From Pseudodesulfovibrio piezophilus C1TLV30 (GTDB taxonomy: Bacteria; Desulfobacterota; Desulfovibrionia; Desulfovibrionales; Desulfovibrionaceae), in the NCBI RefSeq assembly GCF_000341895.1, contig NC_020409.1:1230001-1262000 (forward strand): a stretch of DNA of 32,000 nucleotides, given 5' to 3'. The notes below the pieces were generated by a model. That model saw nothing but the letters and a program-made list of their open reading frames with translations. It was not told where the DNA came from and searched no databases. The translations under genes and the position numbers were made by a program. Below, piece by piece: positions 9,861-25,897 of the stretch. Numbering within the stretch: position 1 is the first letter of the stretch; each line of letters opens with the position of its first letter.

Positions 9861-9888
9861 AAAAAAAAAGACATCTCAAGGATGTCTC
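9861..9888 (-). terminator. Rho-independent terminator of the long catabolic operon
   Basis: On the - strand: AGACATC-cttga-GATGTCT followed by T9. It starts about 18 nt after the stop at 9906. Confidence 0.8.
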
Positions 9889-9905: not shown

Positions 9906-10928
9906 CTATTTTCCAAATGGACAATGAGGGTAAAGACACTCGGGACAGTTGAGACAAAGGCCGCCGTGGGCCTTGTTCACTATAAAGTCACCGCTGATCC
10001 TATCTTTGGCAAAGAGACGGGGAAGCACCAAATCAAGCATGGTTGTCTTGTGGAACATCCCACAGGCGGGGACTCCGATAATGGGGAGGCTCTCCCTGTA
10101 TGCCATCATGAACATGGCTCCGGGGAGTACAGGCGACCCATACGTTATTATATCGGTCGCAAAGTGGGCAATAACGGATGGCGTCAAGTCGTCTGGATCG
10201 ACGCTCATACCACCGGCAAAGACCAGAAGGTCAACATCTTCAGCCATAACCATCTCGGCCTTGTCATGAAGAAAATCTCTCTCGTCAGGGGCATAGATTT
10301 TTTTGACAACCTGCCCACCGAGAGAAGCGATCTTCTGTTCAATGACATCGGAAAATGTATCTTTGATACGCCCTTCAAAGACCTCAGATCCCGTCATAAT
10401 CAAGCCAACTTTCAACGGGTGGAAAGGTCTGACCTGCACAAGAGGGGTGCCCTCTCTGACAACACTCCTCTCGATATCCGACAAAACTTCCTTACCGATG
10501 GTCAGGGGGATTATCTTAACGCCAGCCAGCATATCCCCTTTTTGGACAATGGAATCGGTATGCCGGGTGGCAACAATAACTCCTTCCGCTCCATTGACGC
10601 GCTTCAAAAGTTCGACATCAATATCCAGTAATCCAGTGCAGGAGCTGAAAAGGCTGACTTTTCCCTCGGCTGGCTCAGCCCTTTCTACATGGGGTCCTTC
10701 CAGAAGCGTGGCCAGGAAGACGGCTCCATCATTCTCATGCAAAGCGTTGTCGGAAAGCTCAAAAACATAGAGGTGATTTTTCCCCATATCTTTTAAAACA
10801 GGGATATCCGACTCTCCAACAACATGCCCTTTTCTAAAGGCCACTCCTTTGCTCTTCCCCTTAACAATACGGGTAAGGTCATGGGCCAGTACTGAACCGA
10901 CGGCTTTCTCTACTGCTATTTTTTCCAC
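9906..10928 (-). CDS. MoeA-like / MoCF-type molybdopterin-binding domain protein with C-terminal CX2CX2CX4C motif
   Basis: 340 aa. The N-terminus MEKIAVEKAVGSVLAHDLTRIV resembles the MoeA-like proteins found next to xanthine dehydrogenases. The central Gly-rich part (LLVFAGGMSVDPDD) is typical of the MoCF biosynthesis domain. Apparent GTG start lies 7 nt after the upstream stop, with no clear SD sequence. Confidence 0.7.
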   Translation of the reverse strand: MEKIAVEKAVGSVLAHDLTRIVKGKSKGVAFRKGHVVGESDIPVLKDMGKNHLYVFELSDNALHENDGAVFLATLLEGPHVERAEPAEGKVSLFSSCTGLLDIDVELLKRVNGAEGVIVATRHTDSIVQKGDMLAGVKIIPLTIGKEVLSDIERSVVREGTPLVQVRPFHPLKVGLIMTGSEVFEGRIKDTFSDVIEQKIASLGGQVVKKIYAPDERDFLHDKAEMVMAEDVDLLVFAGGMSVDPDDLTPSVIAHFATDIITYGSPVLPGAMFMMAYRESLPIIGVPACGMFHKTTMLDLVLPRLFAKDRISGDFIVNKAHGGLCLNCPECLYPHCPFGK

Positions 10929-10935
10929 GGGAAAT

Positions 10936-11472
10936 CTAAAACAATGGTGGCGTGATGGTTGAGATGAAAACCATCATCTCGGACCCCACGTTTTTTATCT
11001 GGTGGGGGATGCTTCCCTGATAGTAAATGGTATCCCCCTCTTCCAGAGAATATTCGTCTTCGCCGATGCGAATCCACATCTTCCCTTTCAAAACATAAGT
11101 GACCTCTTCACCCGGATGGGGCAGAGGCTCTTCGCACGTCATTGCTCCCGGCTCAAGTTCCCCCATGAACATCTCCATCTGACGATTCAAATCAGGACAA
11201 AGAAGCTCATAGGTCATATGAGAATTATGAAAATTCAGCTTGCGACGCTGATCCTTTTTGACCACAGCCTTTTGATCATCATCTTCCATGAGAAAGTAGA
11301 AAACGGGCACATTCAAGGCTCGAGATATCTTTCGAAGTGAAGTAACCGAAGGTTCAGCCAGATCCCTCTCGATCTGACTCAAAAAGCCTGGTGTCAAATC
11401 CGTCATTTCAGCCAATTTTTTTTGGCTGATACCAAGCTCAATTCTCTTTGCCTTTATTTTCCTACCCAGCAT
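10936..11472 (-). CDS. XRE-family HTH plus cupin-domain transcriptional regulator (PuuR-like architecture)
   Basis: HTH: LGRKIKAKRIELGISQKKLAEMTDLTPGFLSQIERD. C-terminal cupin: HPGEEVTYVLKGKMWIRIGEDEYSLEEGDTIYYQGSIPHQIKN. I prefer ATG 11472 (GGAG 7 nt upstream) over the TTG at 11490. Confidence 0.85.
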   Translation of the reverse strand: MLGRKIKAKRIELGISQKKLAEMTDLTPGFLSQIERDLAEPSVTSLRKISRALNVPVFYFLMEDDDQKAVVKKDQRRKLNFHNSHMTYELLCPDLNRQMEMFMGELEPGAMTCEEPLPHPGEEVTYVLKGKMWIRIGEDEYSLEEGDTIYYQGSIPHQIKNVGSEMMVFISTITPPLF

Positions 11473-11510
11473 AAACTTCTCCAAGGTCAATCAAAATCGA
11501 CTTGCTCATG

Positions 11511-14237
11511 TTATGATTTCAACGCTTTCAAGACCTTCTCAGGTTTCATAGGCAGGTGTGTCAACCTTTTCCCTATAGCATCATAGATGGCATTCGCGAT
11601 GGCCGGAGCCAGAGGATTCAACCCGACCTCGCCCATTCCCTTGGCGCCAAACGGCCCTTTTTCCTGGGCTTCTTCCACATAGCTCGCTACCACGGGAGGC
11701 ATGCTCTCACTCGTCAGAAGTCCGAAGGATTTCAGGTTCTGAGGGAGCATCTTCTCTCCATCCGAGACGAATTCTTCAGTCAATCCAAGTCCGACCCCCA
11801 TGGCGACAGAGCCTTCTATCTGACCGATGACATTCTTGGGATGAATTGCCTTGCCGACGTCCTGAGAGGAATAAACCTTGAGCACTGTGACCTCTCCGGT
11901 CTGGGTGTTCACCTCCAAAGCCACAGCGGATGAAGCAAAACAATACGAATAATGGATATCATAAGTGGAACGGTCTTCCCCTTCCTTGTAGTTGGCATCG
12001 GTTCGATGAGCGTGAGTCTTAGGCGGATAGTAATCATGTTCAACCTTGGTTTCCACCCCATCCTTCCGAGCCTGATTCCAAGCATTTCTCAAGTGCTCGC
12101 ATGAGACGATTCCACTCTCTGCCAGGTAGGGAGCAAGAGTCTTTTTCAATATTTGAGCCGCTTCCTTGACTGCGTTTCCAGTCACAAAAGTCTGCCGAGA
12201 GGCAGTGGTCATACCACCATCAGGACAGGTCAGGGTGTCGCAGGCGACCACGTCAATAAGCTCATAGGGAACGCCAAGGACACTTCCCGCAATCTGGGCA
12301 CTCAAGGTATCCACCCCCTGCCCCATATCGGTCGCTCCAATACTGACCAAAATCCTCCCCTGTTCTGTCATTTCCACATAAGCGCCGGCCTTGTCTGCCA
12401 GACCAGTGCCGATGCCGACATTTTTGTAAGCACTGGCAAGGCCAAATCCCAGCTTGAGATGTCCTGGCCGCTCCACGGAAGAGAACTCTTCTTTCAATGC
12501 CAAAAGTCCCTTGTGGGCATCTTTCAAAGTATCAAGATAGCCGATGCCATCATGCAAAAGTTGGCCTGTACTCGTCTCTACTCCTTTGGTGAACCCGTTG
12601 ATTTCCCGCAATGTAAATGGGTCCATACCGATGGCCTCGGCCAATTGGTCCATCTGACTTTCACAGGCAAAGCTGGCCTGGGTACTGCCGAATCCTCTGA
12701 ATGCTCCATGAGGATTCTTATGAGTATAGACACCATAGGAATCAGCCTCCACATTCTCGACTTTATAGGGACCGGACGCCGTGACTGCGGAACGGAATAT
12801 GACAGGTTTTGTCTGAGAGCTATAGGCTCCGGCATCACCAATGACTCTGGACCGCATGGCAGTGATGCGACCATCCCTGGTCACTCCATGCTTCATCCAT
12901 ATCTTCATGGGATGCCGTTTGGTGCTCATGCGAATGGATTCTTCGCGAGTCATGACCATTTTCACAGGCCTGTTAGTCAAGAATGTCCCCAAAGCTGCCA
13001 AGAGCTGCACAGTGGGTTCTTCCTTGCCTCCGAAACCGCCTCCTGTGGCCGTGAAAACAACCCGCACCTTGTCATCTTCAAGACAAAGATTTTCCTGAAC
13101 CATCTTCTTGAAGGCCAGAGATCCCTGGCTGCCGGAATAGAGCGTCAGCACCCCATCAACCATCTTGGTCAAACAGGATTCCGGCTCTAGATAAGCGTGC
13201 TCCACGGCCTGTGTCTGATAAATATTTTCTATCACAACATCAGCCTGGGCAAACCCTTTCTCCACATCGCCTTTGCGGACACTCACGTGGTGAATGATGT
13301 TGTTATCAGTATCTTCATGGATACAAGGCGCACCATCCTTGATGTTCTCTTCAGCGTCAGTCAAAGGTTTCAAGACCTTATACTTGACAGAAACCCTGGA
13401 AGCTCCAAGCCTGGCTGCCTCGAGAGTCTCTCCATAAACACACGCAACCACATCACCGAAATATTTTACTTTATCCTGACACAACACAGGCTGTTGCGGG
13501 ACAAAAAGTCCAAATTTATTTATACCAGGCACGTCACCAGAGGTCGCGACCCTCGCAATACCGTGGACAGCATCGGCTTCGGCAGTCTCTATGGCAAGAA
13601 TCTCTGCGTGGGCGTGTTCACTAAATACGGGGACCCCGTAAAGCACCTCATCTTCCTTGAGATCTGCAGCAAAGATGGGCGCTCCGACAACCTTGGCAAT
13701 ACCGTCCTTCTTGGGAACATTAGCACCGATATAATCACCCCTATCAAACGTTCCGGAGGTCTGCTGAATATCCCCCCGCATGATGGCGGCAGCCTTGTGT
13801 ATGGCCCTGAAGATCGCACCGTAGCCGGTGCAACGGCAAATATTATGCCGCAGAGCATGTCGCATTTCCTCATCCGAGGGGGAAAGAGTGCGGCCCAGCA
13901 AAGCCTTGGCCGCCATGATCATACCCGGAGTACAAAAACCGCATTGTACGGCACCTTCTTCAATGAAAGTCGCCTGCAAGGGGTGCAGCTTGTCTTCAGT
14001 CCCAAGGGACTCAATGGTTTCGATCGCGCTCTTATCACAAGACCCCATGGTCACAAGACATGAACGCTTGGCTTGCCCATCAATGACCACGGTACAGGTT
14101 CCGCAGTGCCCTTTCCCGCAGCCGTTTTTAGCACCCATAAGCCCCTGCTCCTCACGCAGGAAATCGAGCAGTCGGCGTTTTGGATCAACCAAGGTTTCTA
14201 CTTGTTTACCGTTGATCGTGCATCTGATGGTTTTCAT
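11511..14237 (-). CDS. Fused [2Fe-2S]/molybdopterin xanthine-dehydrogenase-family hydroxylase (XdhD-like, 908 aa, no FAD domain)
   Basis: N-terminal 2x[2Fe-2S] motifs: CGKGHCGTCTV...C and QCGFCTPG...CRCTGY. Moco-domain motifs: GGGFGGKEE, GAFRGFGSTQ, TDMGQGV and catalytic-Glu region GAKGMGEVGLNP. RBS AGGGGG upstream. ATGA overlap with the upstream gene. Confidence 0.88.
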   Translation of the reverse strand: MKTIRCTINGKQVETLVDPKRRLLDFLREEQGLMGAKNGCGKGHCGTCTVVIDGQAKRSCLVTMGSCDKSAIETIESLGTEDKLHPLQATFIEEGAVQCGFCTPGMIMAAKALLGRTLSPSDEEMRHALRHNICRCTGYGAIFRAIHKAAAIMRGDIQQTSGTFDRGDYIGANVPKKDGIAKVVGAPIFAADLKEDEVLYGVPVFSEHAHAEILAIETAEADAVHGIARVATSGDVPGINKFGLFVPQQPVLCQDKVKYFGDVVACVYGETLEAARLGASRVSVKYKVLKPLTDAEENIKDGAPCIHEDTDNNIIHHVSVRKGDVEKGFAQADVVIENIYQTQAVEHAYLEPESCLTKMVDGVLTLYSGSQGSLAFKKMVQENLCLEDDKVRVVFTATGGGFGGKEEPTVQLLAALGTFLTNRPVKMVMTREESIRMSTKRHPMKIWMKHGVTRDGRITAMRSRVIGDAGAYSSQTKPVIFRSAVTASGPYKVENVEADSYGVYTHKNPHGAFRGFGSTQASFACESQMDQLAEAIGMDPFTLREINGFTKGVETSTGQLLHDGIGYLDTLKDAHKGLLALKEEFSSVERPGHLKLGFGLASAYKNVGIGTGLADKAGAYVEMTEQGRILVSIGATDMGQGVDTLSAQIAGSVLGVPYELIDVVACDTLTCPDGGMTTASRQTFVTGNAVKEAAQILKKTLAPYLAESGIVSCEHLRNAWNQARKDGVETKVEHDYYPPKTHAHRTDANYKEGEDRSTYDIHYSYCFASSAVALEVNTQTGEVTVLKVYSSQDVGKAIHPKNVIGQIEGSVAMGVGLGLTEEFVSDGEKMLPQNLKSFGLLTSESMPPVVASYVEEAQEKGPFGAKGMGEVGLNPLAPAIANAIYDAIGKRLTHLPMKPEKVLKALKS

Positions 14238-15100
14238 CTCGCCCCCTTATATTGATCCATATGATTTGTTGTCAGGTAGTGGGATAAAAGATTCAGAGCC
14301 ACTGTTTTTCTGTATTTTGCTGTTGATCGTTGATCGTCGATAGGTGTCAAAAGGGAGAAAAGATTCTCCCTGAGAAGCGTTGTATCCAAATTAGCAAGAG
14401 GAAATTCCTTTCCCAAAATGAGGCTCTTGATTGTATCATTGAGCAGAGTGACTCGAGGGCCCATGGCCCCGAAAGCGGCATCCATGTCGATGACACTCTT
14501 GTCATCGAGGAGAAGCCGCAGGGCAAAGGAAGCTTTTGAAATCGCATCAGCCTTGCGATTCCCCATCTTCTCGAAGACATAAAAATACCTTTTCGACAAA
14601 AAGGCTTCGTTGATCCTGATCATGATCAGCAGTTCGTTTCCCTTGCGCCCGGTTTGACCAGGACCGGTGATAAACTCTTCCAAAGGAAGAACTCGCTCCC
14701 CTTCCTTGGATGCCAGAACGACCTCTGCCTTAAAAAGGAAAAGTAACGGCAGGGCATCTCCCGCAGGAGAAGCATTGCAAATATTGCCCCCGAGGGTTCC
14801 CTGGTTGCGAATGGCCGGAGAGCCGATCTGGGACAGAGCTTTTTTGAAAACCACGGGGACCTCTGCCGCCTTAATGATATTGGCATACGTCTCGCAGGCT
14901 CCGATACAGAGGTATCCCTGTTCTTTCCAAACACCCTTTAATTCCTTGAGATCACCTATGAAAAGTGGTGGCAGAGCATGCTTCATGGCCCCACCCTTGA
15001 AACGAATCATCACATCAGTCCCGCCAGCAACCGGCATGAAGGGCTCCACCTGCGCCAGGCGCAGTGCATGGTCCAGACTGGAAGGGATAGAACCTACCAC
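14234..15100 (-). CDS. FAD-binding subunit of xanthine-dehydrogenase/CO-dehydrogenase family (CoxM/XdhB/YgfM-like)
   Basis: 288 aa. Motifs: PSSLDHALRLA...PVAGGTDVMI and GSPAIRNQGTLGGNICNASPAGD. GTG start overlaps the small-subunit stop by 7 nt. Confidence 0.85.
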   Translation of the reverse strand: MVGSIPSSLDHALRLAQVEPFMPVAGGTDVMIRFKGGAMKHALPPLFIGDLKELKGVWKEQGYLCIGACETYANIIKAAEVPVVFKKALSQIGSPAIRNQGTLGGNICNASPAGDALPLLFLFKAEVVLASKEGERVLPLEEFITGPGQTGRKGNELLIMIRINEAFLSKRYFYVFEKMGNRKADAISKASFALRLLLDDKSVIDMDAAFGAMGPRVTLLNDTIKSLILGKEFPLANLDTTLLRENLFSLLTPIDDQRSTAKYRKTVALNLLSHYLTTNHMDQYKGAR

Positions 15101-15561
15101 AGTCCACCCCCATTTTTCGCAGCCAAAAGAACTGCCTCGAAAATCAAATTATAACCGGTGCAACGGCAGAGATTGCCGGAAAGGGCCTCCTTCACTTCAG
15201 GAAGGGTCGGATCAGGATTTTTCACAAGCAGAGCATGGGAAGCCAAAATCATCCCTGGCGTACAGAACCCACATTGCACCGCACTACAGCGTGCAAAGGC
15301 CTCATCAAGACACTTGAACTGAGGTGTCCCCTTGAATCCTTCTATGGTCAACACAGACTTTCCCGCCACATTGGCCAAAGGATAAATACAGCTAGTATGC
15401 AGTGTGTCATTGATGAGAAGACTACATGCCCCACACTCTCCTTCGCCACACCCCTCCTTGCTGCCCATGAGACCAAATGAACTGCGTAGAACATGTAGAA
15501 GAGGTGTCGAGAGAGGAGAATTCACAGAAACAATTTTATTATTCAATGTAAAAGAGATCAT
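15094..15561 (-). CDS. [2Fe-2S]-binding small subunit of xanthine-dehydrogenase family
   Basis: 155 aa. Motifs: CGEGECGACSLL...C and QCGFCTPG...CRCTGY. Confidence 0.9.
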   Translation of the reverse strand: MISFTLNNKIVSVNSPLSTPLLHVLRSSFGLMGSKEGCGEGECGACSLLINDTLHTSCIYPLANVAGKSVLTIEGFKGTPQFKCLDEAFARCSAVQCGFCTPGMILASHALLVKNPDPTLPEVKEALSGNLCRCTGYNLIFEAVLLAAKNGGGLW

Positions 15562-15564
15562 TAT

Positions 15565-17730: not shown

Positions 17731-17896
17731 ATATTCACCTGAAGAGTTGGAACCTGATAACTCCAGTATACATCAAAGCTTTTCAAACAAACGGCGAATT
17801 CCGTCACAACTTCGCCCAGTGTTCAATTCCAGTAACAATCCATGTCCTCAAGAGATCGGCAAACCAGATGCCATCAAACCGAAGTGTCCCGAGACT

Positions 17897-18982
17897 CTAG
17901 ACACCATAGGTAATGGCACTCTTCGGGCAAAGGGACCGGCAAAAGCTACAGCCGAAACATTTCTCTTGGTTGACACGAATGCCATCATCCTCGTGGGTCA
18001 GAGCCATGTAAGGGCACGCTTTCACACAACGGTCACAGAGAATACATTTTTCAGCATCAATCCTGGGAAGGCAGACCTCATACGAAACTTGAGGAATGAT
18101 AAGATCCGTCTCTACCACCTCCTGAACAGAGGCGAAGCCATAGTGGACCAGTCTTTCTGGAAGATCGTTCAGTATCGTACGGTAGAGATCCACTCCCTTG
18201 AGCATGGCGGCAGAGAGCATTTGAACGGCGCTTGCTCCGGCCAGCAGAAATTCCAAGACATCATCGGCCGTCGCGACCCCCCCCACACCGATGATCTCAC
18301 ATTCCGGAAGAGCTTTCTTTATGCGGGAGATGAAGGCCAGAGCGAGAGGCTTGATGGCCGGTCCGGACATCCAGACCTCTCCTTGACTATTCCCCATGGA
18401 AGTGGAGCGGCTTTTGAGATCAATGGACATGGCCGGTCCCAGGGAATTGATGGCAACAATACCATTGCCACCGTTTTCCAGCACCATTTCGCAGAAAGCC
18501 ACGGGATCTGGCATATGGGGAGACATCTTCATGAAAAACGGCTTATCCGTCATGGAACGGATTGTCCTGATCGTCTCCCTGATGACTGAAAGATCCTTGC
18601 CAACGTAATGAGTGGATATTTCAAAGGCATCGGCAAAAGGGTCCAGATGAGGAATCAGCCCTTTCATGTCATCCTTTGTATACCCCATGCTGATAAGGAG
18701 AGGGATATCAAGCTTGGGCCTGACCGCCGGAAGGATTTCATCCTTCCACGTATCCAGAGCATACTCGGACCAAAGCTCAGCATTGGTCACATAGTTTTTC
18801 CCGGACTGAATACAGGGACGGGGAACGTGCGCTCCTTGCAGCGAAATGGTCTTACTGACCATCCCCCCTACGCCCCGCTCGTACAGGGCCATCATTTTTT
18901 CCGCATCCCCGACCAGAGGGCCAGAAGCTGGGAGAAGAGGGGTCTTGAACTCCATACCGGCTACGCTTGTCTTCAAATCCAT
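17897..18982 (-). CDS. Dihydroorotate/dihydropyrimidine-dehydrogenase-like (PreA-like) TIM-barrel flavoprotein with C-terminal 2x[4Fe-4S] ferredoxin domain; atypical active-site loop
   Basis: Aligns by eye to class-1 DHOD: FKTPLLPASG, VSKTISL, AINSLGP, SGPAIKPLAL, IIGVGGVATADDVLEFLLAGASAVQ. C-terminal motifs: CILCDRCVKACP and CFGCSFCRSLCP. Confidence 0.8.
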   Translation of the reverse strand: MDLKTSVAGMEFKTPLLPASGPLVGDAEKMMALYERGVGGMVSKTISLQGAHVPRPCIQSGKNYVTNAELWSEYALDTWKDEILPAVRPKLDIPLLISMGYTKDDMKGLIPHLDPFADAFEISTHYVGKDLSVIRETIRTIRSMTDKPFFMKMSPHMPDPVAFCEMVLENGGNGIVAINSLGPAMSIDLKSRSTSMGNSQGEVWMSGPAIKPLALAFISRIKKALPECEIIGVGGVATADDVLEFLLAGASAVQMLSAAMLKGVDLYRTILNDLPERLVHYGFASVQEVVETDLIIPQVSYEVCLPRIDAEKCILCDRCVKACPYMALTHEDDGIRVNQEKCFGCSFCRSLCPKSAITYGV

Positions 18983-18996
18983 TCTACTTTCCCTTC

Positions 18997-20331
18997 TCAG
19001 TTTGAAATTTCATTCCATAATTTCCGGGCACAATTGTGCGCCTCGTCATATTTATAGACATCCTCGTCGGCCAAGCGTCCCTCAGCGACCCGCATCTCTC
19101 CGCGACTCCACACAAAAGAAGGTCTCAAATTATCCAAAAGACCAAAAAAGAAATGCCCAAGCATATTATCTTCACATAACGGGGTAATAGGCTGGTAAGG
19201 GATGATGAAAAAATCAGCATCAAACCCCTTTTGCAAGCGTCCAATTTGACAGCCCAATAAAGTATTCACATACTCATATGTCCAGTTGATGCTCTCTGCC
19301 AGCCAACCAAGCTGAAAGCTACCCGGACCATGGACAAGCTGGTAGGTAAACAACAGATTCTGGTAATCTCTGGTCATGCCGAACCCCAGACCATCATTGC
19401 CGATCATCCAGGGAATACCGAGGTCAACCGTCTGCTTGACAGGGGGAAGACCAACGCCGTTATTCATATTGGACGTGGGGTTGAAAACCAGGAAACAGCC
19501 TCGCTCCTGCAAAATTTCGAATTCCCGCTCCTCCATATGGACCCCATGAGCAATGAGGCTGCCGCTCTGCAACAGCCCGAAATGATCGAAGCGTTCCATG
19601 ATGGTCTTCCCGCACTCTTCTCGAGTCCAATCCACATCTTCCCGGCTTTCGGCAACATGGACATGCACCGGAGCAGAATCGGAAGCGGCTGCGATTCTTT
19701 TCAGGGAATCATCGGACAAACTGAAAGAAGCGTGCATACCGAACAGCCCACCACACAATCCCGTCCCTTCCGCTTTCTGCAAGGTATGAAAAGAAGCATT
19801 CTCTTCCATGCACTCATCCAGATCGAAACGATCACTGGTTTCGAAACAAAAAAGTGCCCGCAAACCGCCTTCGGTAACAGCACCCTGTTTCAGGGCGCTC
19901 AGGCTCCCCTTGATGAGTTTCCCACTGGCATGGTGATCAATAATTGTGGTCACCCCGTTTTTCAGGAATTCCCCTGCACCCACCAGCGCACTCAAAGTGA
20001 CCTCATCTTTCCCAAGAAACCGATCGAGTTTCCACCACAGTTGATCAAGCACATCCTGAAAAGAATGGGGATCGAAGGGAGTCAGCCATCCCCGTGCAAA
20101 AGTGGAATAGAGATGGGTATGCGCCGCCACAAGTCCGGGCAACAGGAAGCCACCCTTTCCATCTGTCTGGTTGCAGTCGTTTCGAGACACCCCCCACTCC
20201 GCGAGAACTCCATCAAGTTCACTCATGCGCCCGGTCGCCAGAATTTTTTCCTCGAACAGAACAAAACAATCTGTTTTCAATTCCTGAAAATCATAGGTGG
20301 AAACATTGATTATGAGATTCTTCATCGGCAC
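18997..20331 (-). CDS. ssnA: SsnA-like amidohydrolase (chlorohydrolase/aminohydrolase superfamily)
   Basis: 444 aa. Metal motif LPGLVAAHTHLYSTFARG. Length and overall layout fit SsnA-type proteins of yge/ygf-type clusters. The start overlaps the upstream stop by 10 nt. Confidence 0.7.
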   Translation of the reverse strand: MPMKNLIINVSTYDFQELKTDCFVLFEEKILATGRMSELDGVLAEWGVSRNDCNQTDGKGGFLLPGLVAAHTHLYSTFARGWLTPFDPHSFQDVLDQLWWKLDRFLGKDEVTLSALVGAGEFLKNGVTTIIDHHASGKLIKGSLSALKQGAVTEGGLRALFCFETSDRFDLDECMEENASFHTLQKAEGTGLCGGLFGMHASFSLSDDSLKRIAAASDSAPVHVHVAESREDVDWTREECGKTIMERFDHFGLLQSGSLIAHGVHMEEREFEILQERGCFLVFNPTSNMNNGVGLPPVKQTVDLGIPWMIGNDGLGFGMTRDYQNLLFTYQLVHGPGSFQLGWLAESINWTYEYVNTLLGCQIGRLQKGFDADFFIIPYQPITPLCEDNMLGHFFFGLLDNLRPSFVWSRGEMRVAEGRLADEDVYKYDEAHNCARKLWNEISN

Positions 20332-21659
20332 TTCCTCCGTATGAATTGACCTGAATTTTCGTGAAAGACTTCATCAATCATGACCGCACTTCCTCGGACA
20401 AATGTTGCGCAGATCACACCTTGCCCCCGGACCCCGAAATAAGGAGAAACAGAGCCATCCCTCTTCAAGTGCTCATGCCAAGGCATATTTGCGCCAAATG
20501 TATAAGATCTTTCAGGATCAAAAATTGCTATATCACCGTCACTTCCTTCCCGTATGGTTCCCTTTCTGGGGTAGAGACCGTGAACCTTGGCACTTTCATG
20601 GGTCATTTTGGAGAGCACTTTTGCCCCAAAGAGATTGAAAAGGACGGGAAGAGTATACGGAATTCCTTCTATTCCATTGGGAATATCATCAAGGCAGGCA
20701 TGATCTTTCTCTTCTTCCCGGTAGGGACAATGATCAGTCGCGAGGGTCGTAATATCATCAATATACGCCCGCAATTTTTCCTTTTCCAGAGCCGGACGCA
20801 AGGGCGGGGTCATCACATATCGATACCCTCGACTGCCCTTATAGACGGCTGAGTCAAACTGGAAATAATGAGGACAACTTTCAAGCAGGAATCGTCCCTC
20901 TCCCAAAAGCTGTGCAAACCCCTCTTGCAACTTCTCAATGGTAGTCCCGCAGTTGGTATGCACTATGTACCCATACCCGCCCGCATATTCGAAGACCTGC
21001 GCCAGCTTCATCACTTCACTTATTTCTGAGAGAGGCGGTCGACGAAAACCATGGGCGGCAACCAGAGCTGCCGGAGATTCGTCTATCATCTCGTTATTTT
21101 CAGCGTGGATGAGGATGGTAAATCCTGATTTCTCAGATTCCCGACACAATTTTGCCAAGAGAATATCTTTGGTCTGCCGCCCCGTGGAGCTATAGGTCGT
21201 GAACAGCTTTATGGACGGCACCCCCTGAGCTATCAGAAAGTCACTCAATTCCTCCAGGGGATCGTCATACCCCTTGATGGTCGGATGAAAGCTGAAATCG
21301 ATATTACAATCGGCAGCATCCAGCATCCTTTGGGCAAGGGCAGCTTTCATCTCATCAAGCCCGGAAGACGGGTTCAAAAAATCGATGACAGTCGTTACTC
21401 CGCCATAGGCAGCCAAAACAGAGCCGGTATAAAAATCATCTCGGGAATACGTTTCTCCAACCCCCAGGTGAAAATGAACATGAGGATCGATAAGCCCAGG
21501 TAAAACCCATTTCCCCTTGGCATCGTAAGTCGTGGCCGCCTTGAAAGGCTCCTTGCCTATTTTTTCAATAATGCCATCTTTTATGAAAACATTGGTTTTC
21601 TCGAACCGGCCTTCCCTGTAGACAAGGCCATTGATGACAACAAGGTCCATACTGTCCAC
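20322..21659 (-). CDS. Cyclic amidohydrolase, dihydropyrimidinase/D-hydantoinase-like (HyuA/YgeZ-like)
   Basis: 445 aa. A full set of expected ligand motifs is present: PGLIDPHVHFH, PSIKLF (carboxylated Lys position), LIHAEN, IVHTN and LATDHCP. The start is either GTG 21659 or ATG 21650. Confidence 0.8.
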   Translation of the reverse strand: MDSMDLVVINGLVYREGRFEKTNVFIKDGIIEKIGKEPFKAATTYDAKGKWVLPGLIDPHVHFHLGVGETYSRDDFYTGSVLAAYGGVTTVIDFLNPSSGLDEMKAALAQRMLDAADCNIDFSFHPTIKGYDDPLEELSDFLIAQGVPSIKLFTTYSSTGRQTKDILLAKLCRESEKSGFTILIHAENNEMIDESPAALVAAHGFRRPPLSEISEVMKLAQVFEYAGGYGYIVHTNCGTTIEKLQEGFAQLLGEGRFLLESCPHYFQFDSAVYKGSRGYRYVMTPPLRPALEKEKLRAYIDDITTLATDHCPYREEEKDHACLDDIPNGIEGIPYTLPVLFNLFGAKVLSKMTHESAKVHGLYPRKGTIREGSDGDIAIFDPERSYTFGANMPWHEHLKRDGSVSPYFGVRGQGVICATFVRGSAVMIDEVFHENSGQFIRRKCR

Positions 21660-21661
21660 AG

Positions 21662-23269
21662 CTATTCCCCTCTCAGCAAGACAGAGCCTTGCCCATTGGG
21701 ATAATAGGACTCACCATCGTAGGCCACCTCGCCATTGACCATGACCAACTCAAGACCGGTAGGGAATTGGTCAGGCTGCATGAAATCACCGACATCCTTG
21801 AAATTTTCAGGATCAAAAATGATCAGATCGGCATAGGCATTTTTTCGAACAACACCCCGATCCGTGAGCCGGTAATTTCTTGCCGGGTTATAAGTCATCC
21901 TTTTCACGGCTTCTTCAAGAGGGAGAATCTTCTTTGTCTTCACAAACTGGGAAATAACGCGGGGGAAAGCGCCGTATGCCCGAGGATGCATCTTGCCACC
22001 GAGCAAACCATCAGTGCAGACAGACATTTCCTCTCGCTGACAGAATACTTCCAGGTGTTCCTCCTTGCCGTAATAATCGATCATCCCCACTCGGTTTTGC
22101 TCCGCTACCAGAAGGTCGAAAAGACCATCCAGAGGATCAACCTGGCGAATCTCCGCTATCTCAGAGAGACTTTTACCAATGGCGAACTGATTTTTCTGCG
22201 TCACGACACTGGTCACGAAAATACCATCAAAACCGGCAAACTCGACAAAGTTATCCCACATGGAATTCTTCTCGAGAATGGCGGCCTTGATCTTGTGTCG
22301 CTCGGCTTCGGATTGAAGCCGTTCCAGCATCTTTGCCGTGCCCCCCACATGGGCCCACGGAGGCAGAAGCGCGCTCAGCATGGTACTGCCTGCGGTATAA
22401 GGGTACATATCGAAAGTGACAGCAATGCCCTCTTCCCTGGCCCGATCAATTTTTCCCAGAACTTCGTCGATCTTCTCCCAATTATTCTTGCCGCAAATCT
22501 TGAAGTGAGAAAAATGCACCCGTACCCCACTCTCGCGACCAATAGTGATGATTTCATCCATGGAAGACAGGATCTGATTGGCCTCGCTCCGCTGGTGTAC
22601 CACAAAAACACCATCATATTCGGCCACCACCCTGCACATTTCGGTCAATTCTTCTGTCGAGCCGTAGGCGCAGGGGATATAGATCAGCCCGGTAGACAGC
22701 CCCACGCATCCGGCTTCCATTCCTTTTCGAACTTCATCACACATGGCCTTGATATTGGCACCTGTGGCCTTTTTTTCGGAAAACCCAAGAACGGACAGAC
22801 GAACATTCCCATGAGGTACCAGGTAGGTGGAGTTGCTGGTTGAGCCGCTGTGCCGGATACGGTCCAAATACCCCTCTATCGTTTCATAGGTCCAATCCAT
22901 TTCGTCACTATCGCCATCTAGACCACCGATATTTTTCCGCCAGTCATCAATAAACGGCCCTGGAAGCGGAGCCATGGCCACGCCATCCTGCCCCAGGACC
23001 TCAGTCGTGATCCCCTGGCGGAGCTTCGGCTTGAGCAGGGGATCAAGCAGAATCTGCAAATCACTGTGGCTATGGGAATCGATAAATCCGGGAGCGACCA
23101 CCTGACCAAGGGCATCGATAACCAGATCCGCCTGGGTACGAAACTCATGAGCTTCCCCTTCCCGCTTGAGAGCAATGATTCTGTCTCCTTCGATGAGGAT
23201 ATCCCCCTTGAACGAAGGGCCTCCCGTACCGTCGACGATGACACCGTTAATGAGAGCTGTTTTTTTCAT
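21662..23269 (-). CDS. N-acyl-D-amino-acid deacylase (D-aminoacylase)-family amidohydrolase
   Basis: 535 aa. N-terminal beta-domain, then PGFIDSHSHSD. Length and C-terminal beta-sandwich tail (ADLIIFDPENF...) are typical of the family. Confidence 0.75.
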   Translation of the reverse strand: MKKTALINGVIVDGTGGPSFKGDILIEGDRIIALKREGEAHEFRTQADLVIDALGQVVAPGFIDSHSHSDLQILLDPLLKPKLRQGITTEVLGQDGVAMAPLPGPFIDDWRKNIGGLDGDSDEMDWTYETIEGYLDRIRHSGSTSNSTYLVPHGNVRLSVLGFSEKKATGANIKAMCDEVRKGMEAGCVGLSTGLIYIPCAYGSTEELTEMCRVVAEYDGVFVVHQRSEANQILSSMDEIITIGRESGVRVHFSHFKICGKNNWEKIDEVLGKIDRAREEGIAVTFDMYPYTAGSTMLSALLPPWAHVGGTAKMLERLQSEAERHKIKAAILEKNSMWDNFVEFAGFDGIFVTSVVTQKNQFAIGKSLSEIAEIRQVDPLDGLFDLLVAEQNRVGMIDYYGKEEHLEVFCQREEMSVCTDGLLGGKMHPRAYGAFPRVISQFVKTKKILPLEEAVKRMTYNPARNYRLTDRGVVRKNAYADLIIFDPENFKDVGDFMQPDQFPTGLELVMVNGEVAYDGESYYPNGQGSVLLRGE

Positions 23270-23285
23270 CGGCTCACTGACTGCC

Positions 23286-24464
23286 CTATAAAACTGCTAA
23301 AGTTTCCATGATGATCTCGTACCCCTTCACAGCCTTGTCCAGCTGATCAATTTCGATATACTCATCGATGGTGTGAGCAAGAAATTCATCGGAAGGTCCA
23401 AAGCCGAGAGTCTTGATGTTGGCCTCGCCTGCATAATGACTGCCATTGGTGCAGAAATCATAATGGGTGAGAACACTGTCAAAACCATCTTTTTTCAAAG
23501 CAGCAAAAACCGAGGCGACAAATTGTTCCTTTTTATCATAATACCAACCGGGGAAAAACCGTTCGTCACCGATTTTTTCACCCGTGTAGCAGATGAGTTC
23601 CGCCTCGCTCAAAGAGACCTTCACGTTGAGATTCGGATGCTCCTCTTTCAGCAATGACACAGTCTCGAAGACCGGCCCGAGCACGCTCTCCTTGGTCTCT
23701 CCGACCAACAGACGCCTATCCCATGTCGTCCTGCAATAGTCAGGGACCACAGAAGCACCGGGATAAGGAGAAGAAATGACATCCACCAAAACAAGAATTC
23801 CCTTGCCTAAATTTTCATCAACCACCGGGGAAATCAGCTTCACGGCATTGATGACTTCAGCCATCTGATAGACTGCATTGACCCCATGTTCAGGGTTGGC
23901 ACTATGAGCGGGTTTACCGAATGTCTCAATGACCACTTCTGCCCGTCCACGCTGACCATGTTTCAAATTCAAATGAGAAGCTTCACCAATAACCACATAA
24001 TCAGGCTTGTGGTTCTTACTGATCTCACGGGCTGCGACACCTTCAAAGCACTCTTCGTGGCAGACTCCTGCCACACAGATCGTCCCTTTGAAATGACGGT
24101 CAGTCTCTTGGGCAAAATTCCTGGCCCCGACCAACATGGCGGCCAAAGCCCCCTTCATGTCCGAAGTCCCACGCCCGAAGACCTTGCCGTCTTCAATCGC
24201 TCCGCCAAAAGGATCATGGGTCCACTTGCTCGCGTCGGGCACTGGCACCGTATCCATATGAGCGTCATAAAGCTGGACTGGCCCATCTTCCTTTCCATAG
24301 ATGGTGCCGACCACATTGCCGTATTTGTCGACATCCACTTGATCAAAACCAAACTCGATCATGGTTTCTTCCAAAACCTTGGCAACCTGCCCTTCTTCAC
24401 CGGAATAGCTTTTGGCCTGGATGAGTCTTTGACAAACCTCAACAACTTCACTGTACGTATTCAT
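23286..24464 (-). CDS. ygeY: YgeY-family M20 metallopeptidase/deacylase ('selenium-metabolism-linked hydrolase')
   Basis: 392 aa. The N-terminus CQRLIQAKSYSGEEGQVAKVLEETMIEFGFD and motifs AHMDTVP, GRGTSDMKG and HEECFEG fit the M20/ArgE-DapE fold and the YgeY subgroup. It lies adjacent to dpaL, as in E. coli ygeX-ygeY. Confidence 0.8.
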   Translation of the reverse strand: MNTYSEVVEVCQRLIQAKSYSGEEGQVAKVLEETMIEFGFDQVDVDKYGNVVGTIYGKEDGPVQLYDAHMDTVPVPDASKWTHDPFGGAIEDGKVFGRGTSDMKGALAAMLVGARNFAQETDRHFKGTICVAGVCHEECFEGVAAREISKNHKPDYVVIGEASHLNLKHGQRGRAEVVIETFGKPAHSANPEHGVNAVYQMAEVINAVKLISPVVDENLGKGILVLVDVISSPYPGASVVPDYCRTTWDRRLLVGETKESVLGPVFETVSLLKEEHPNLNVKVSLSEAELICYTGEKIGDERFFPGWYYDKKEQFVASVFAALKKDGFDSVLTHYDFCTNGSHYAGEANIKTLGFGPSDEFLAHTIDEYIEIDQLDKAVKGYEIIMETLAVL

Positions 24465-24469
24465 ATTAA

Positions 24470-25705
24470 TTATGCCTCGGGTTCATTGTAGCGACCGTAC
24501 CAGACAACGTCCCGATAGACTCCGGGATCAGTATCTCCTTCGGTGCTGAATGCCAGAACAGTTGATTTTTCGTTCAATTCCAGCATGGCCTTGAGGTCCG
24601 CATATTCAGGGCTCTTCATGATCCTTTCGAGCACACCCACGCCAACGGCCCCGGACTCACCGCTGACCACTGCAGTGTCACCGGAAAGAGGATTACCCAG
24701 AATTCGCATACCATTGGCCGTCGCCCACTCCGGGGCACTAATAAACCCATAGGTCAGCTGTTTCAGGATCTTGTTGCCAAGAGGATTTTGCTCACCACAG
24801 GCCAATCCGGCCATAATGGTGATCAGATCGCCTGTCTTGGTCACATCCGCGCCCTTCAAGGCACTCCCGTAATAGCAATCAGCCACATCGGCCTCGACGA
24901 GAATAATCTTAGGGCATTTTTCTTTATAAAGAGTCCGCAGAGATTCAGCGATAACACCGGCAAAAGCACCGACTCCAGCCTGAATAAAAACATGGGTCGG
25001 GATGGTCTCGCCCAGATCGGCACTGAATTCCTGGGCAATGGTGGAATATCCCTGCATGATCCAGCGAGGGACATCCTCGTACCCTTCCCAGGCCGTGTCC
25101 TGAATAACCAGCCAATTTTCCTGTTTGGCCTTGTCCGCCACAAAACGCACGGTTTCATCATAGTTCAGGTCGGTGACAGTGGCCTCAGCTCCCTCAGCCA
25201 GGATATGATCCACCCTGGCCTGTGTCGTTCCCTTGGGCATGAAGATGAAGACAGGCAACCCCAATTGTCGCCCCATCCAGGCGACGCCACGGCCATGGTT
25301 GCCATCGGTTGCTGCTGCCAGTTTGATATGAGGAAGTTCCTTATGCACTCGTTTTTTCATTTCTGGAAAAGGCAAAGAGCAAAGGGGTTCTCCCAACTCG
25401 TTGGCAAGAGCCTTGCCAACAGCATAGGAAGCCCCAAGCACCTTGAAAGAATTCAAGTTGAACCGACTGGATTCATCCTTGACAAAAAGCTGATTCACTC
25501 CAACAAATTCGGCCAGGCCATCAAGCGAATACATCGCGCTTTTCCTGTATTCCAAGAAAGATTCATGAAATGTCTTCACTTCGTTCAAGACATCATCATT
25601 TATCAGTTCAGGCTCATAGGCTTGCAGGACCTGATTTCCGTTTTTCAAAGCTTTTATCTTCATTCTCAATTCTTCCTTGGTAAGATTCTTGATGTCGAAC
25701 ATCAT
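24470..25705 (-). CDS. dpaL: Diaminopropionate ammonia-lyase (PLP-dependent, YgeX/DpaL)
   Basis: 411 aa. PLP-Lys region KDESSRFNLNSFKVLGASYAV, then ATDGNHGRGVAW and a Gly-rich loop GVGAFAG. It is the first gene of the co-directional cluster. Confidence 0.85.
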   Translation of the reverse strand: MMFDIKNLTKEELRMKIKALKNGNQVLQAYEPELINDDVLNEVKTFHESFLEYRKSAMYSLDGLAEFVGVNQLFVKDESSRFNLNSFKVLGASYAVGKALANELGEPLCSLPFPEMKKRVHKELPHIKLAAATDGNHGRGVAWMGRQLGLPVFIFMPKGTTQARVDHILAEGAEATVTDLNYDETVRFVADKAKQENWLVIQDTAWEGYEDVPRWIMQGYSTIAQEFSADLGETIPTHVFIQAGVGAFAGVIAESLRTLYKEKCPKIILVEADVADCYYGSALKGADVTKTGDLITIMAGLACGEQNPLGNKILKQLTYGFISAPEWATANGMRILGNPLSGDTAVVSGESGAVGVGVLERIMKSPEYADLKAMLELNEKSTVLAFSTEGDTDPGVYRDVVWYGRYNEPEA

Positions 25706-25897
25706 TCTTGCAGTATTTCCGGAAACACTCGAAAATTCACTTTATCGAAAATATCCCTTCTCCGACAAGGTGCTCTTCACACCGGCCCACGACAGATATT
25801 CCTTCATCGCACAACAACCACTCTCCGCCATCAGGGACATTGGAATGCCTGTCACTAATGTAGTTTTTCTTCACAGAGAAAGTCACTCTACGAAAGG

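Follow-up and report, generated by a model that had tools for sequence, protein, structure and literature searches.

A putative C. difficile-type operon for anaerobic urate degradation in a Desulfovibrionaceae genome

The window, a stretch of 32,000 nucleotides analysed at full length, contains twelve co-directional ORFs packed between positions 9906 and 25705; these and all other features described here lie on the minus strand. Counted from the end of dpaL onward, with starts taken from the longest ORFs, successive genes are spaced by 5, 16, 2, -10, 14, 166, 3, -7, -4, 20, and 7 nt, so that apart from the 166 nt the gaps within the operon are 2-20 nt and the overlaps 4-10 nt. The initial annotation had described the same twelve genes, the same overlaps and exactly this large gap, while its upper bound of 38 nt for the other gaps was not reproduced. 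The 166-nt intergenic spacer (17731-17896) contains no terminator-like and no sigma-70-like site on the minus strand, has no Rfam match, and does not fold better than shuffled sequences (z = +0.52). The corresponding junction spans only about 25 nt in two comparison loci (L005 and L087). Two terminator-like hairpins with T-tracts are found 3' of the last operon gene (9712-9888). One, at 9888-9868, has a stem of 8 bp followed by TTTTTTT, and the other, at 9730-9714, has a stem of 7 bp including five GC pairs, followed by CCGTTTTTTT. They precede a permease gene (8114-9598), which had already been placed after a terminator, and 307 nt separate this gene from the last operon gene. Judged by the spacing the cluster is a real operon, predicted to be co-transcribed and split by the 166-nt gap.

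At the dpaL end the operon encodes YgeX/DpaL (24470-25705, 411 aa), a PLP-dependent 2,3-diaminopropionate ammonia-lyase. Its membership in this family had been set beforehand as a test, and the protein scores 489 bits against NF006058, passing the equivalog cut-off of 276. It shares 48% identity with E. coli YgeX and 50% with its C. difficile orthologue. The M20 hydrolase YgeY (23286-24464, 392 aa) also passes its equivalog model (NF009555, 461 bits, cut-off 321), and shares 59% identity with the YgeY of C. difficile and 31% with that of E. coli. The third gene (21662-23269, 535 aa) encodes an amidohydrolase of the D-aminoacylase family (PF07969), assigned as UacY-type by synteny with C. difficile. 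It is 54% identical to the syntenic C. difficile protein (P0108 in locus L002) over its full length (an alignment of 529 aa), and its PDB matches are the D-aminoacylases 1M7J (237 bits) and 3GIP/3GIQ (229 bits).

The next three genes encode the putative ring-opening and ring-reducing enzymes. A divergent HyuA-like cyclic amidohydrolase of the hydantoinase/dihydropyrimidinase family (20322-21659, 445 aa) has TIGR02033 as its top model, at 249 bits and thus under the cut-off of 393. It shares 30% and 29% identity with the HyuA proteins of E. coli and C. difficile, respectively, and homologues of the same type (41-44% identity) are found in uricolytic clusters of Bacillota. This protein would open a hydantoin ring. 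The divergent SsnA-like aminohydrolase (18997-20331, 444 aa), which would open the reduced pyrimidine ring, scores highest against the two SsnA models, with 333 and 315 bits, below the cut-offs of 444 and 455.5. The next-best family reaches only 114 bits, about three-fold under the SsnA models. With the SsnA proteins of E. coli and C. difficile, which are themselves just 36% identical to each other, the protein shares 34% and 32% identity, respectively. The UacX-type reductase (17897-18982, 361 aa; PF01180 and Fer4 domains) consists of a DHOD/DPD-like FMN domain and a C-terminal 2x[4Fe-4S] ferredoxin domain, without an FAD/NAD(P)H domain. Its full-length identity to the 369-aa C. difficile UacX, which has the identical architecture, is 38%, and homologues from Bacillota clusters reach 59-60%. 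By analogy, the protein is a candidate 2,8-dioxopurine reductase.

Two molybdenum hydroxylases are encoded downstream of the spacer. The three-subunit XdhABC-type enzyme consists of a Moco-binding large subunit (15565-17730, 721 aa), a [2Fe-2S] subunit (15094-15561, 155 aa; PF01799 and PF00111) that is 42% identical to E. coli XdhC, and an FAD-binding subunit (14234-15100, 288 aa; PF00941 and PF03450) that is 28% identical to E. coli XdhB. The large subunit has R. capsulatus XdhB as its top PDB match, and it belongs to a separate clade of its own that recurs in uricolytic clusters. The second hydroxylase (11511-14237, 908 aa) is a fused protein with two [2Fe-2S] clusters and a Moco domain but no FAD domain, resembling XdhAC/DOPDH and the C. 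difficile-type XdhD. It is 34-36% identical to the latter (blastp, 468-526 bits), and reaches 647 bits against a curated cut-off of 830. Both enzymes carry equivalents of the purine-binding bovine residues Q767, E802, R880, F914, and E1261; in the fused enzyme E406, R482, and the catalytic glutamate are present. According to Liu et al. (bioRxiv 10.1101/2025.04.24.650524) the XdhABC architecture denotes a xanthine dehydrogenase (XDH) and the fused XdhAC architecture a DOPDH, and the published DOPDH signature is F1009V and A1078T/S in bovine numbering. The fused enzyme conforms to this signature, carrying Ile and Thr at these positions, while the large subunit of the trio retains Phe1009. In a rough neighbor-joining tree, which lacks bootstrap values and was built without reference sequences from C. 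sporogenes, the DOPDH-type clade is the sister group of the fused enzyme. From these two alignment columns and this tree, the trio is a putative XDH forming urate from hypoxanthine or xanthine, and the fused enzyme a putative DOPDH-like reductase converting urate to 2,8-dioxopurine. In other genomes the trio is accompanied by a fused enzyme either of the type found here (L050) or of the C. difficile type (L048 and L084), which is the pattern expected if the two fused enzymes are functionally equivalent. The approximately 41 kb of the contig examined contained no selD, yqeB, or yqeC that could be found.

The last two operon genes and the permease gene complete the locus. A 184-aa protein (10936-11490) combines an XRE-family HTH domain with a cupin domain (PF01381 and PF07883), an architecture similar to that of PuuR, and is probably a small-molecule-responsive regulator of the operon. 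Homologues with 52-84% identity adjoin ygeX-ygeY-uacY or the full operon in five comparison loci (L004, L008, L010, L072, and L087). The last gene (9906-10928) encodes a conserved 340-aa molybdopterin-binding protein (MoCF340 family) that matches PF00994 only and has an invariant C-terminal Cys4 motif (C325, C328, C331, and C336). The family is large, with members in Gottschalkia purinilytica and P. hydrargyri among others. The gene labels of the initial annotation were each reproduced at family level by profile searches, but "MoeA-like" applies to this protein solely as a remote resemblance of fold: a Foldseek search with its AF2 model (pLDDT 89) matched MoeA, GephE, and Cnx1E at E values around 1e-8 and TM scores of 0.30-0.36. 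Its predicted fold, a truncated one of the MoeA/gephyrin-E type, suggests that it is probably an accessory factor in Moco maturation for both hydroxylases. The NCS2 xanthine/urate permease (PbuX/XanQ-like) scores 432 bits against TIGR03173 (cut-off 414), shares 46% identity with E. coli XanQ and 31% with UacT, and would take up the substrate; its gene is probably transcribed separately from the operon.

The gene order is repeated in a TARA scaffold (77-90% identity) and in the cultured Pseudodesulfovibrio hydrargyri (62-84%), and is largely kept in a Spirochaetia MAG (63-83%); the arrangement is thus not due to chance. The sulfate-reducer-like host suspected from the sequence is indeed a member of the Desulfovibrionaceae, near Pseudodesulfovibrio.

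A reductive urate pathway via 2,8-dioxopurine has been established experimentally (Li et al., 2025, PMC12507026; Liu et al., 2025, bioRxiv 10.1101/2025.04.24.650524), and each step has published biochemistry across E. coli, C. difficile, and C. sporogenes. In the C. difficile variant UacX replaces YgfK, and UacY replaces YgeW/YqeA; that variant has been partly reconstituted, and the available part of the article describes a UacX assay in the Methods and states no result for UacX activity (Li et al., 2025). The pathway logic proposed in the initial annotation agrees step for step with this published route. With all steps assigned by homology to enzymes assayed in other organisms, xanthine or urate would be imported by the permease, and hypoxanthine or xanthine would be oxidized to urate by the trio. 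The fused enzyme would then remove the C6 oxygen, and the resulting 2,8-dioxopurine would be dearomatised by the UacX-like FMN/[4Fe-4S] reductase with electrons from ferredoxin or a similar low-potential donor and not from NAD(P)H. The SsnA-like hydrolase would open the six-membered ring to yield ureidomethyl-hydantoin, which the HyuA-like hydrolase would convert to 2,3-diureidopropionate. UacY is predicted to hydrolyse the 2-ureido group irreversibly, so that, unlike with YgeW/YqeA, no carbamoyl phosphate or ATP would be gained. YgeY would take off the ureido (carbamoyl) group that is left, yielding 2,3-diaminopropionate (DAP), from which YgeX/DpaL would form pyruvate and two NH3. The presence of a bona fide DAP ammonia-lyase calls for a C3 product that contains a CH2-N carbon, and by chemical reasoning and the published pathway such a product implies that the C6 oxygen is removed, as on the 2,8-dioxopurine route. 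The adjoining xanthine permease, which passes its own cut-off, was also counted for a purine route. The operon thus quite probably serves to degrade purines or urate anaerobically to pyruvate and ammonia by the hydrolytic, ferredoxin-type UacX/UacY route.

The late steps could be as described and the diverged upstream module (fused hydroxylase, UacX-like, SsnA-like, and HyuA-like proteins) still differ in entry substrate, ring-opening order or regiochemistry, for instance with the 5-ureido-dihydrouracil branch as main route, or with another oxopurine or N-heterocycle as the start. The SsnA-like, HyuA-like, and fused enzymes fall below curated cut-offs that their C. difficile counterparts clear easily (717, 610, and 1661 bits), so substrate or regiochemistry could differ. 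These upstream enzymes also travel together as a separate set in Desulfovibrionaceae, Spirochaetia, and some Bacillota (L005, L087, L010, and L050), and E. coli SsnA already makes two products, UMH (major) and 5UDU (minor). Such a difference is nevertheless unlikely, as the well conserved lower-half enzymes (50-59%) point to late intermediates that are shared, the SsnA models score about three-fold above any other amidohydrolase family, and the fused enzyme has the DOPDH-type active-site signature; an SsnA identity of about 33% also lies within the known range of the family.

Very little credence can be given to the 908-aa protein being an aldehyde oxidoreductase of the Mop/Mod type typical of Desulfovibrio, with the trio alone carrying out the purine chemistry. 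The solved structures nearest in sequence are indeed Desulfovibrio aldehyde oxidoreductases, the best full-length matches being D. desulfuricans Mod (1DGJ, 425 bits) and D. gigas Mop (1SIJ, 385 bits), with equal length (907-908 aa), an equal FAD-less architecture and a Desulfovibrionaceae host. The score against NF045668 is 593 bits, but this is far under the cut-off of 1100, and like-for-like blastp scores to Mod and Mop (414 and 382 bits) are below those to the C. difficile-type XdhD, with which the tree also groups the protein. Where the 908-aa protein has Gln371 and Glu406, as in XDH/DOPDH, Mop and Mod lack the residues equivalent to 767 and 802 and carry Val or Ile, and Phe, instead. In Spirochaetia and Bacillota, orthologues with 54-86% identity occupy the equivalent place in the operon. 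Active-site residues and tree thus place both hydroxylases outside the aldehyde-oxidoreductase and CO-dehydrogenase clades, whose membership would have contradicted the initial annotation. Most improbable is that the cluster is a composite encoding Pyd-type reductive catabolism of pyrimidines, or that it encodes the Rabinowitz "xanthinase" pathway of purine fermentation, in place of the 2,8-dioxopurine route. The PreA/PydA-like reductase and the dihydropyrimidinase-family and M20 hydrolases superficially resemble PydA, PydB, and PydC, the SsnA-like and HyuA-like amidohydrolases are divergent, and G. purinilytica, an obligate purine fermenter, likewise has a member of the MoCF340 family. Against pyrimidine catabolism stand the two hydroxylases that bear purine-binding residues, the xanthine permease, the bona fide DAP ammonia-lyase and the UacY orthologue, none of which has a role there, and also the YgeY passing its own equivalog cut-off. 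The xanthinase pathway, which leads to glycine via imidazole intermediates, needs a decarboxylase and formimino-group enzymes, which are absent among the protein families found in the window.

The putative 2,8-dioxopurine operon described here differs from that of E. coli in having a PydA/DHOD-like Fe-S flavoprotein (UacX) for YgfK and a D-aminoacylase homologue (UacY) for YgeW/YqeA. Neither YgeW, YqeA (carbamate kinase), YgfK, YqeB, YqeC, nor MocA was found in the window and about 9 kb past its end, in line with the earlier report that YgeW, carbamate kinase, and YgfK are missing. The D-aminoacylase and PreA-like reductase had been taken as signs of a non-standard gene set with likely undescribed chemistry; they correspond instead to the published C. 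difficile UacY and UacX. New are the Desulfovibrionaceae host of a urate operon, shared with P. hydrargyri, the diverged SsnA-like, HyuA-like, and DOPDH-like enzymes below curated family cut-offs, and the conserved MoeA-like accessory protein bearing a Cys4 tail. The gene set itself is a diverged example of the UacX/UacY variant published in 2025 and not new chemistry, and it has its best matches in the biochemically studied C. difficile locus, where the order is largely shared, with identities of 50% for YgeX, 59% for YgeY, 54% for UacY, 38% for UacX, 32% for SsnA, and 34% for the fused molybdenum enzyme.

The anaerobic, reductive degradation of uric acid was shown experimentally by two studies published in 2025 (Li et al., PMC12507026; Liu et al., bioRxiv 10.1101/2025.04.24.650524). 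Urate is converted to 2,8-dioxopurine by XdhD-YgfM in E. coli, or by a fused XdhAC designated 'DOPDH' in C. sporogenes; the ring is reduced by YgfK and opened by SsnA to give ureidomethyl-hydantoin, which HyuA converts to 2,3-diureidopropionate. The ureido groups are removed by YgeW/YqeA and YgeY, and YgeX converts 2,3-diaminopropionate to pyruvate and ammonia (PMC12507026; 10.1101/2025.04.24.650524). [quoted passage not shown] The pathway logic that the initial annotation had read from the sequence alone is correct, and is that of the reductive uric-acid pathway. Its claim of a non-standard and likely undescribed chemistry did not survive, as the two features it singled out are the UacX and UacY substitutions published for C. 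difficile. The novelty claim has been overtaken by the 2025 publications, and the locus is a new, diverged example with no new chemistry. The chemistry of the individual steps has been shown for the enzymes of E. coli, C. difficile or C. sporogenes, and is assigned here from homology and genomic context.

The operon (9906-25705, minus strand) encodes, in order, YgeX, YgeY, UacY, a HyuA-like and an SsnA-like protein, a UacX-like reductase, the three subunits of a molybdenum hydroxylase (721, 155, and 288 aa), a fused 908-aa molybdenum hydroxylase, an XRE-cupin regulator and a 340-aa protein. The 12 co-directional genes of the initial annotation were all recovered as minus-strand ORFs with precisely the same coordinates, and its family-level identities were reproduced using Pfam and NCBIfam. 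With longest-ORF starts, the junctions are in order 5, 16, 2, -10, 14, 166, 3, -7, -4, 20, and 7 nt, and 307 nt separate the last gene from the permease gene (8114-9598, minus strand). The short gaps and overlaps described earlier thus hold, while the upper bound of 38 nt does not, since it depends on the choice of start codon. The 307-nt interval also contains two terminator-like hairpins followed by T-tracts (minus strand, 9888-9868 and 9730-9714), in agreement with the terminator proposed there.

The 166-nt gap (17731-17896) between the genes for the UacX-like protein and the large subunit is peculiar to the window; the same junction spans about 25 nt both in the TARA Oceans scaffold and in P. 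hydrargyri discussed below. Neither a terminator nor a sigma-70-type promoter was found on its coding strand. It contains a single hairpin, whose sequence is unique within the window, and the gap folds no better than shuffled sequence (z = +0.52). Since it shows no structure, repeat, or consensus of a promoter or terminator, the gap is regarded as an ordinary spacer. In the cluster as a whole, the only repeats are short matches at chance level. An Rfam scan of the whole window gave no matches at the gathering score, so no riboswitch was detected, including the xanthine/urate class. The Firmicute clusters are under the control of sigma-54 activators, while no -24/-12 motif was found upstream of the first gene of the present operon. 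The 1.6 kb separating this operon from the divergent formate dehydrogenase operon (25706-27349) has a low G+C content (about 43-47%). Two small ORFs without Pfam matches are all it contains (26214-26525 and 26600-26914), while its minus strand has a strong terminator-like hairpin at 26282-26260. The operon promoter and any operator of the XRE-cupin regulator would be expected in this region, but were not identified there.

The enzymes of the lower half of the pathway are well conserved. The 411-aa YgeX/DpaL protein passes the equivalog cut-off of NF006058 (489 bits, cut-off 276) and falls just under that of TIGR03528 (492, cut-off 532); it is 50% identical to the C. difficile and 48% identical to the E. 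coli enzyme. YgeY passes NF009555 (461 bits, cut-off 321), with 59 and 31% identity, respectively. UacY (PF07969) shares 54% identity over 529 aa with its C. difficile counterpart, which is likewise encoded directly after YgeX-YgeY. It matches D-aminoacylases in the PDB with 229-241 bits, including 3GIP/3GIQ, the structure used for the UacY comparison by Li et al. (PMC12507026), and its nearest relatives among the GTDB species genomes are from Spirochaetia MAGs (73-74%). The UacX-like protein (361 aa) contains PF01180 and two [4Fe-4S] clusters but no FAD/NAD(P)H domain; it has the same architecture as the 369-aa C. difficile UacX and is 38% identical to it over the full length. No curated family model exists for scoring UacX. 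The absence of YgeW, carbamate kinase (YqeA), and YgfK noted in the initial annotation was borne out by tblastn using the E. coli proteins, both for the window and for the related loci. MocA was similarly not found in the window, and YqeB and YqeC, accessory genes expected alongside SelD in a system with selenium-dependent molybdenum hydroxylases, were found neither in the window, nor in about 9 kb beyond its end, nor at the loci of the TARA scaffold and P. hydrargyri.

YgeX-YgeY-UacY also occur on their own within 10 kb in many genomes, mostly of Lachnospiraceae and other Bacillota, but also in a Spirochaetales MAG (L004, L007, L009, L014, L019, L021-L024, L026, L027, L030, L032, L040, L047, and others). 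In these loci the genes are preceded by a sigma-54 activator or, in L004, followed by an XRE-cupin regulator. No molybdenum enzyme, reductase or ring-opening hydrolase was found within 10 kb. Either the upstream genes are located elsewhere in these genomes, or the module is self-standing and may act on substrates such as diureidopropionate, albizziin-like compounds or 2,3-diaminopropionate.

The upstream half of the pathway, in contrast, is diverged throughout. The SsnA-like protein scores highest by a wide margin with the SsnA models, yet stays below their cut-offs (NF005540, 333 against 444; TIGR03314, 315 against 455.5), which C. difficile SsnA exceeds with 717 and 634, respectively. It is 32% identical to the C. 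difficile and 34% identical to the E. coli protein. The HyuA-like protein reaches 249 bits with TIGR02033 (IPR011778; cut-off 393), compared to 610 for C. difficile HyuA, and displays 29% identity to the C. difficile and 30% to the E. coli enzyme. For the 908-aa enzyme TIGR03311 gives 647 against a cut-off of 830, while C. difficile XdhD scores 1661. The window-type set recurs at 41-60% identity in some Bacillota (L010, L050, and partly L048, L073, L083, and L084), and these sets likewise score below the curated cut-offs. The published distribution survey was seeded on IPR017700, that is, SsnA (Li et al., PMC12507026), and may consequently have missed clusters of the window type. It probably under-counts the carriers, as the upstream sub-variant falls beneath the thresholds of surveys using InterPro and NCBIfam. 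In the cluster of Ca. Clostridium helianthi (L010, 5338-19675), YgeX and YgeY are separated by a homologue of guanine deaminase, and a MocA homologue is also encoded. The cluster starts with an XRE-cupin regulator 68% identical to that of the window, suggesting that this regulator travels with the window-type sub-variant across phyla.

The initial annotation had assumed a host resembling sulfate reducers, and three observations support this. The alpha subunit of the neighboring formate dehydrogenase is closest to that of a Pseudodesulfovibrio MAG (79%), followed by Desulfovibrio, Desulfocurvus, and Oceanidesulfovibrio (67-69%). On a TARA Oceans scaffold (L005), the same ten genes are found in identical order (77-90% identity), beside genes for formate dehydrogenase and cytochrome c3. 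In the cultured Pseudodesulfovibrio hydrargyri, the operon is conserved from the HyuA-like to the permease gene, with 62-84% identity. Desulfovibrio is mentioned in neither Li et al. nor Liu et al., and the phylum of the sulfate reducers is not included in the phylum list of Li et al. No literature tying Desulfovibrio or Pseudodesulfovibrio to the pathway was found in main texts or supplements, a result that is weak for the MAG tables, where coverage was possibly incomplete. An operon 63-83% identical to that of the window is found on the near-complete chromosome of a Spirochaetia MAG (OY764216.1, 7529-21070). The HyuA-like, SsnA-like, and 340-aa genes are missing at this locus, and UacX is encoded straight after UacY. 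Its similarity to the window is about the same as that of the P. hydrargyri operon, and this suggests that the operon was recently transferred between phyla.

A periplasmic FDH-N-type formate dehydrogenase operon (27350-31183, plus strand, running past the window end) adjoins the urate operon and is transcribed divergently from it. It encodes the alpha and beta subunits followed by FdhE and FdhD. The alpha subunit carries the Tat motif RRRFLK, and its Sec position is occupied by cysteine rather than selenocysteine (RVCH, residues 200-203). Formate dehydrogenase genes flank the operon in the TARA scaffold too, together with a gene for cytochrome c3; one of the copies seems to be split in the way that a Sec codon would cause. 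Li et al. state that formate stimulates the anaerobic breakdown of urate by E. coli and Enterococcus (PMC12507026), and by analogy it is conceivable that the formate dehydrogenase is linked to the supply of reductant for the urate operon. A DMSO-reductase-family module is located downstream of the operon (1639-7360, minus strand). It is preceded by a gene for a 459-aa protein in which only a C-terminal LuxR/GerE HTH was recognized (5981-7360), and encodes a chaperone resembling TorD (5293-5862), a 752-aa catalytic subunit of the Tat type (3006-5264), and DmsB-like and DmsC-like subunits (2433-2999 and 1639-2430, respectively), all on the minus strand. All NCBIfam matches of this module are far below their cut-offs, and give no substrate assignment.

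The 340-aa protein had been labeled MoeA-like, which holds as a description of its fold but not as membership of the MoeA family. A Foldseek search with the predicted structure (pLDDT 89) retrieved MoeA, gephyrin-E, and Cnx1E as remote, whole-length matches (E about 1e-8, TM 0.30-0.36), while a sequence-only search of the PDB gave only a weak match to CinA. PF00994 (MoCF_biosynth) is the only Pfam match even at E <= 1; neither MoeA_N (PF03453) nor MoeA_C (PF03454) was found, and a full MoeA has about 400 aa. In place of MoeA domain IV the protein has a tail with four cysteines (C325, C328, C331, and C336) in the invariant C-terminal motif H-G-G-x-C-x2-C-x2-C-x4-C-x2-G-K, which is disordered in the model (pLDDT below 50) and may be a metal or Fe-S site. 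The family is large, and Gottschalkia purinilytica, which ferments purines, has a member of it. Some of the proteins carry the annotation of a MocA-type cytidylyltransferase or are fused to one (P0260, 506 aa).

According to Liu et al. (bioRxiv 10.1101/2025.04.24.650524), the XdhABC architecture denotes a true xanthine dehydrogenase and the fused XdhAC a DOPDH, the latter differing from bovine XOR by F1009V and A1078T/S. The window encodes one enzyme of each architecture. The three-subunit enzyme has the complete set of Moco, [2Fe-2S], and FAD subunits, and the equivalents of bovine Glu802, Arg880, Phe914, Phe1009, and Glu1261 are all present; its 721-aa subunit clade keeps Phe1009 and has Val at position 1078. 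None of the XDH equivalog cut-offs is reached (best TIGR03196, 353 against 784), and by its sequence it is a xanthine dehydrogenase of the XdhABC/PucCDE kind outside any curated equivalog. The 908-aa enzyme is fused and FAD-less, with two [2Fe-2S] clusters and Moco. It has Gln371 and Glu406 at the positions of Gln767 and Glu802 in bovine XDH, as well as equivalents of Arg880 (R482), Phe914, and the catalytic Glu1261. Its identity to XdhD is 34% for C. difficile and 27% for E. coli, and a rough NJ tree places its clade as sister to that of the C. difficile-type, or DOPDH-type, enzymes. At bovine positions 1009/1078 its clade has Ile/Thr, where the C. difficile type has Val, Ile or Leu (in one case Cys)/Thr. 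Glu606 of E. coli XdhD was rejected as a marker for DOPDH, being part of an insertion specific to E. coli XdhD that none of the clostridial-type or window-type enzymes has. In other genomes the three-subunit type is accompanied by a fused enzyme of the window type (L050) or of the C. difficile type (L048 and L084), as would be expected if the fused enzymes are equivalents. Residue signature, architecture, tree, and co-occurrence together make it reasonably probable that the three-subunit enzyme oxidizes xanthine or hypoxanthine while the fused enzyme reduces urate to 2,8-dioxopurine.

The ranking of solved structures would rather make the 908-aa protein a Mop-type aldehyde oxidoreductase, since Desulfovibrio Mod and Mop match its sequence best, along the entire length and with about 32% identity. 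Mop and Mod have, however, Ile or Val and Phe at the positions of Gln371 and Glu406, and the protein scores only 593 bits with the Mop/Mod equivalog model NF045668 (cut-off 1100). In a like-for-like blastp comparison it obtains 468-526 bits with C. difficile-type XdhD, against 414 with Mod and 382 with Mop. Together with the genomic context this makes a Mop-type enzyme very improbable, and the possibility raised in the initial annotation, that both hydroxylases belong to clades of aldehyde oxidoreductases, CO dehydrogenases or aromatic-acid hydroxylases, is contradicted by the residues, scores, tree position, and context of the 908-aa enzyme. That the whole cluster encodes a pyrimidine or xanthinase pathway is scarcely credible. 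Chemical reasoning supports the 2,8-dioxopurine route: a genuine 2,3-diaminopropionate ammonia-lyase presupposes a C3 product with a CH2-N carbon as its C3, and to derive such a carbon from a purine the C6 oxygen must be lost, as it is in that route. A third alternative, an upstream module with a different substrate or regiochemistry, is unlikely. Equally unlikely, though more novel, is that the Desulfovibrionaceae have a separately evolved upstream module (the fused molybdenum enzyme with the UacX-like, SsnA-like, and HyuA-like proteins, all outside the curated families) that does what the gut pathway does not. Such a module might start from another oxopurine or open the rings in another order, or the four-electron reduction of urate might serve as an electron sink of the respiratory type, supplied by the periplasmic formate dehydrogenase encoded next to it. 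If either of these were true, the turnover of purines or urate would provide sulfate reducers of marine and sediment habitats with carbon, nitrogen, and an electron acceptor, a resource so far unrecognized that would have spread through transfer between Desulfovibrionaceae and Spirochaetia.

On the preferred reading, the reductive uric-acid pathway in its UacX/UacY form, each urate would bring a sulfate reducer pyruvate and four ammonia and would cost it four reducing equivalents; as UacY is hydrolytic, no ATP would come from carbamoyl phosphate. The pathway was elucidated only in 2025 and is medically relevant, as urate disposal in the gut bears on gout. It is here extended to Desulfovibrionaceae from environmental and marine metagenomes, a lineage and a habitat named in neither Li et al. 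nor Liu et al. The cultured carrier P. hydrargyri offers a test organism for the pathway, and is also suited for asking which electron donors the FAD-less molybdenum enzyme and UacX use physiologically.

The closest known system is that of C. difficile, where the cluster (YgeX-YgeY-UacY-SsnA-permease-UacX-HyuA-XdhD) contains the same enzyme set with the same UacX and UacY substitutions. The two share the YgeX-YgeY-UacY order at the 5' end, a fused, FAD-less molybdenum enzyme, and a UacX of the same architecture with FMN and two [4Fe-4S] clusters. The upstream enzymes of the window are, however, far more diverged (SsnA 32%, HyuA 29%, and molybdenum enzyme 34%), and unlike in C. difficile the operon includes genes for a three-subunit enzyme of the XdhABC type, as well as an additional, conserved gene for the MoeA-like 340-aa protein. 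The regulator is of the XRE-cupin type instead of a sigma-54 activator, the permease is XanQ-like and encoded outside the operon while that of C. difficile is UacT-like, and the host is a Gram-negative sulfate reducer. The E. coli-type system (10.1101/2025.04.24.650524) has the same general pathway logic and the same end product, with identities to the window of 48% for YgeX, 34% for SsnA, 30% for HyuA, 31% for YgeY, and 46% for XanQ, and in both cases an XDH (XdhABC) co-occurs with a fused enzyme of the DOPDH (XdhAC) type. Unlike E. coli, the window lacks YgfK (DOPOR), YgeW, YqeA, YqeB, YqeC, and MocA; without YgfK, YgeW, and YqeA there would be neither a carbamoyl-phosphate/ATP step nor an NAD(P)H-linked reductase. 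Its fused enzyme shares only 27% identity with E. coli XdhD and is without the insertion bearing E606. The 908-aa enzyme resembles Mop of Desulfovibrio gigas (1VLB/1SIJ) and Mod of D. desulfuricans (1DGJ) in length and domain order, but it differs from them in the active site, misses the NF045668 cut-off, and is found in a context of purine catabolism.
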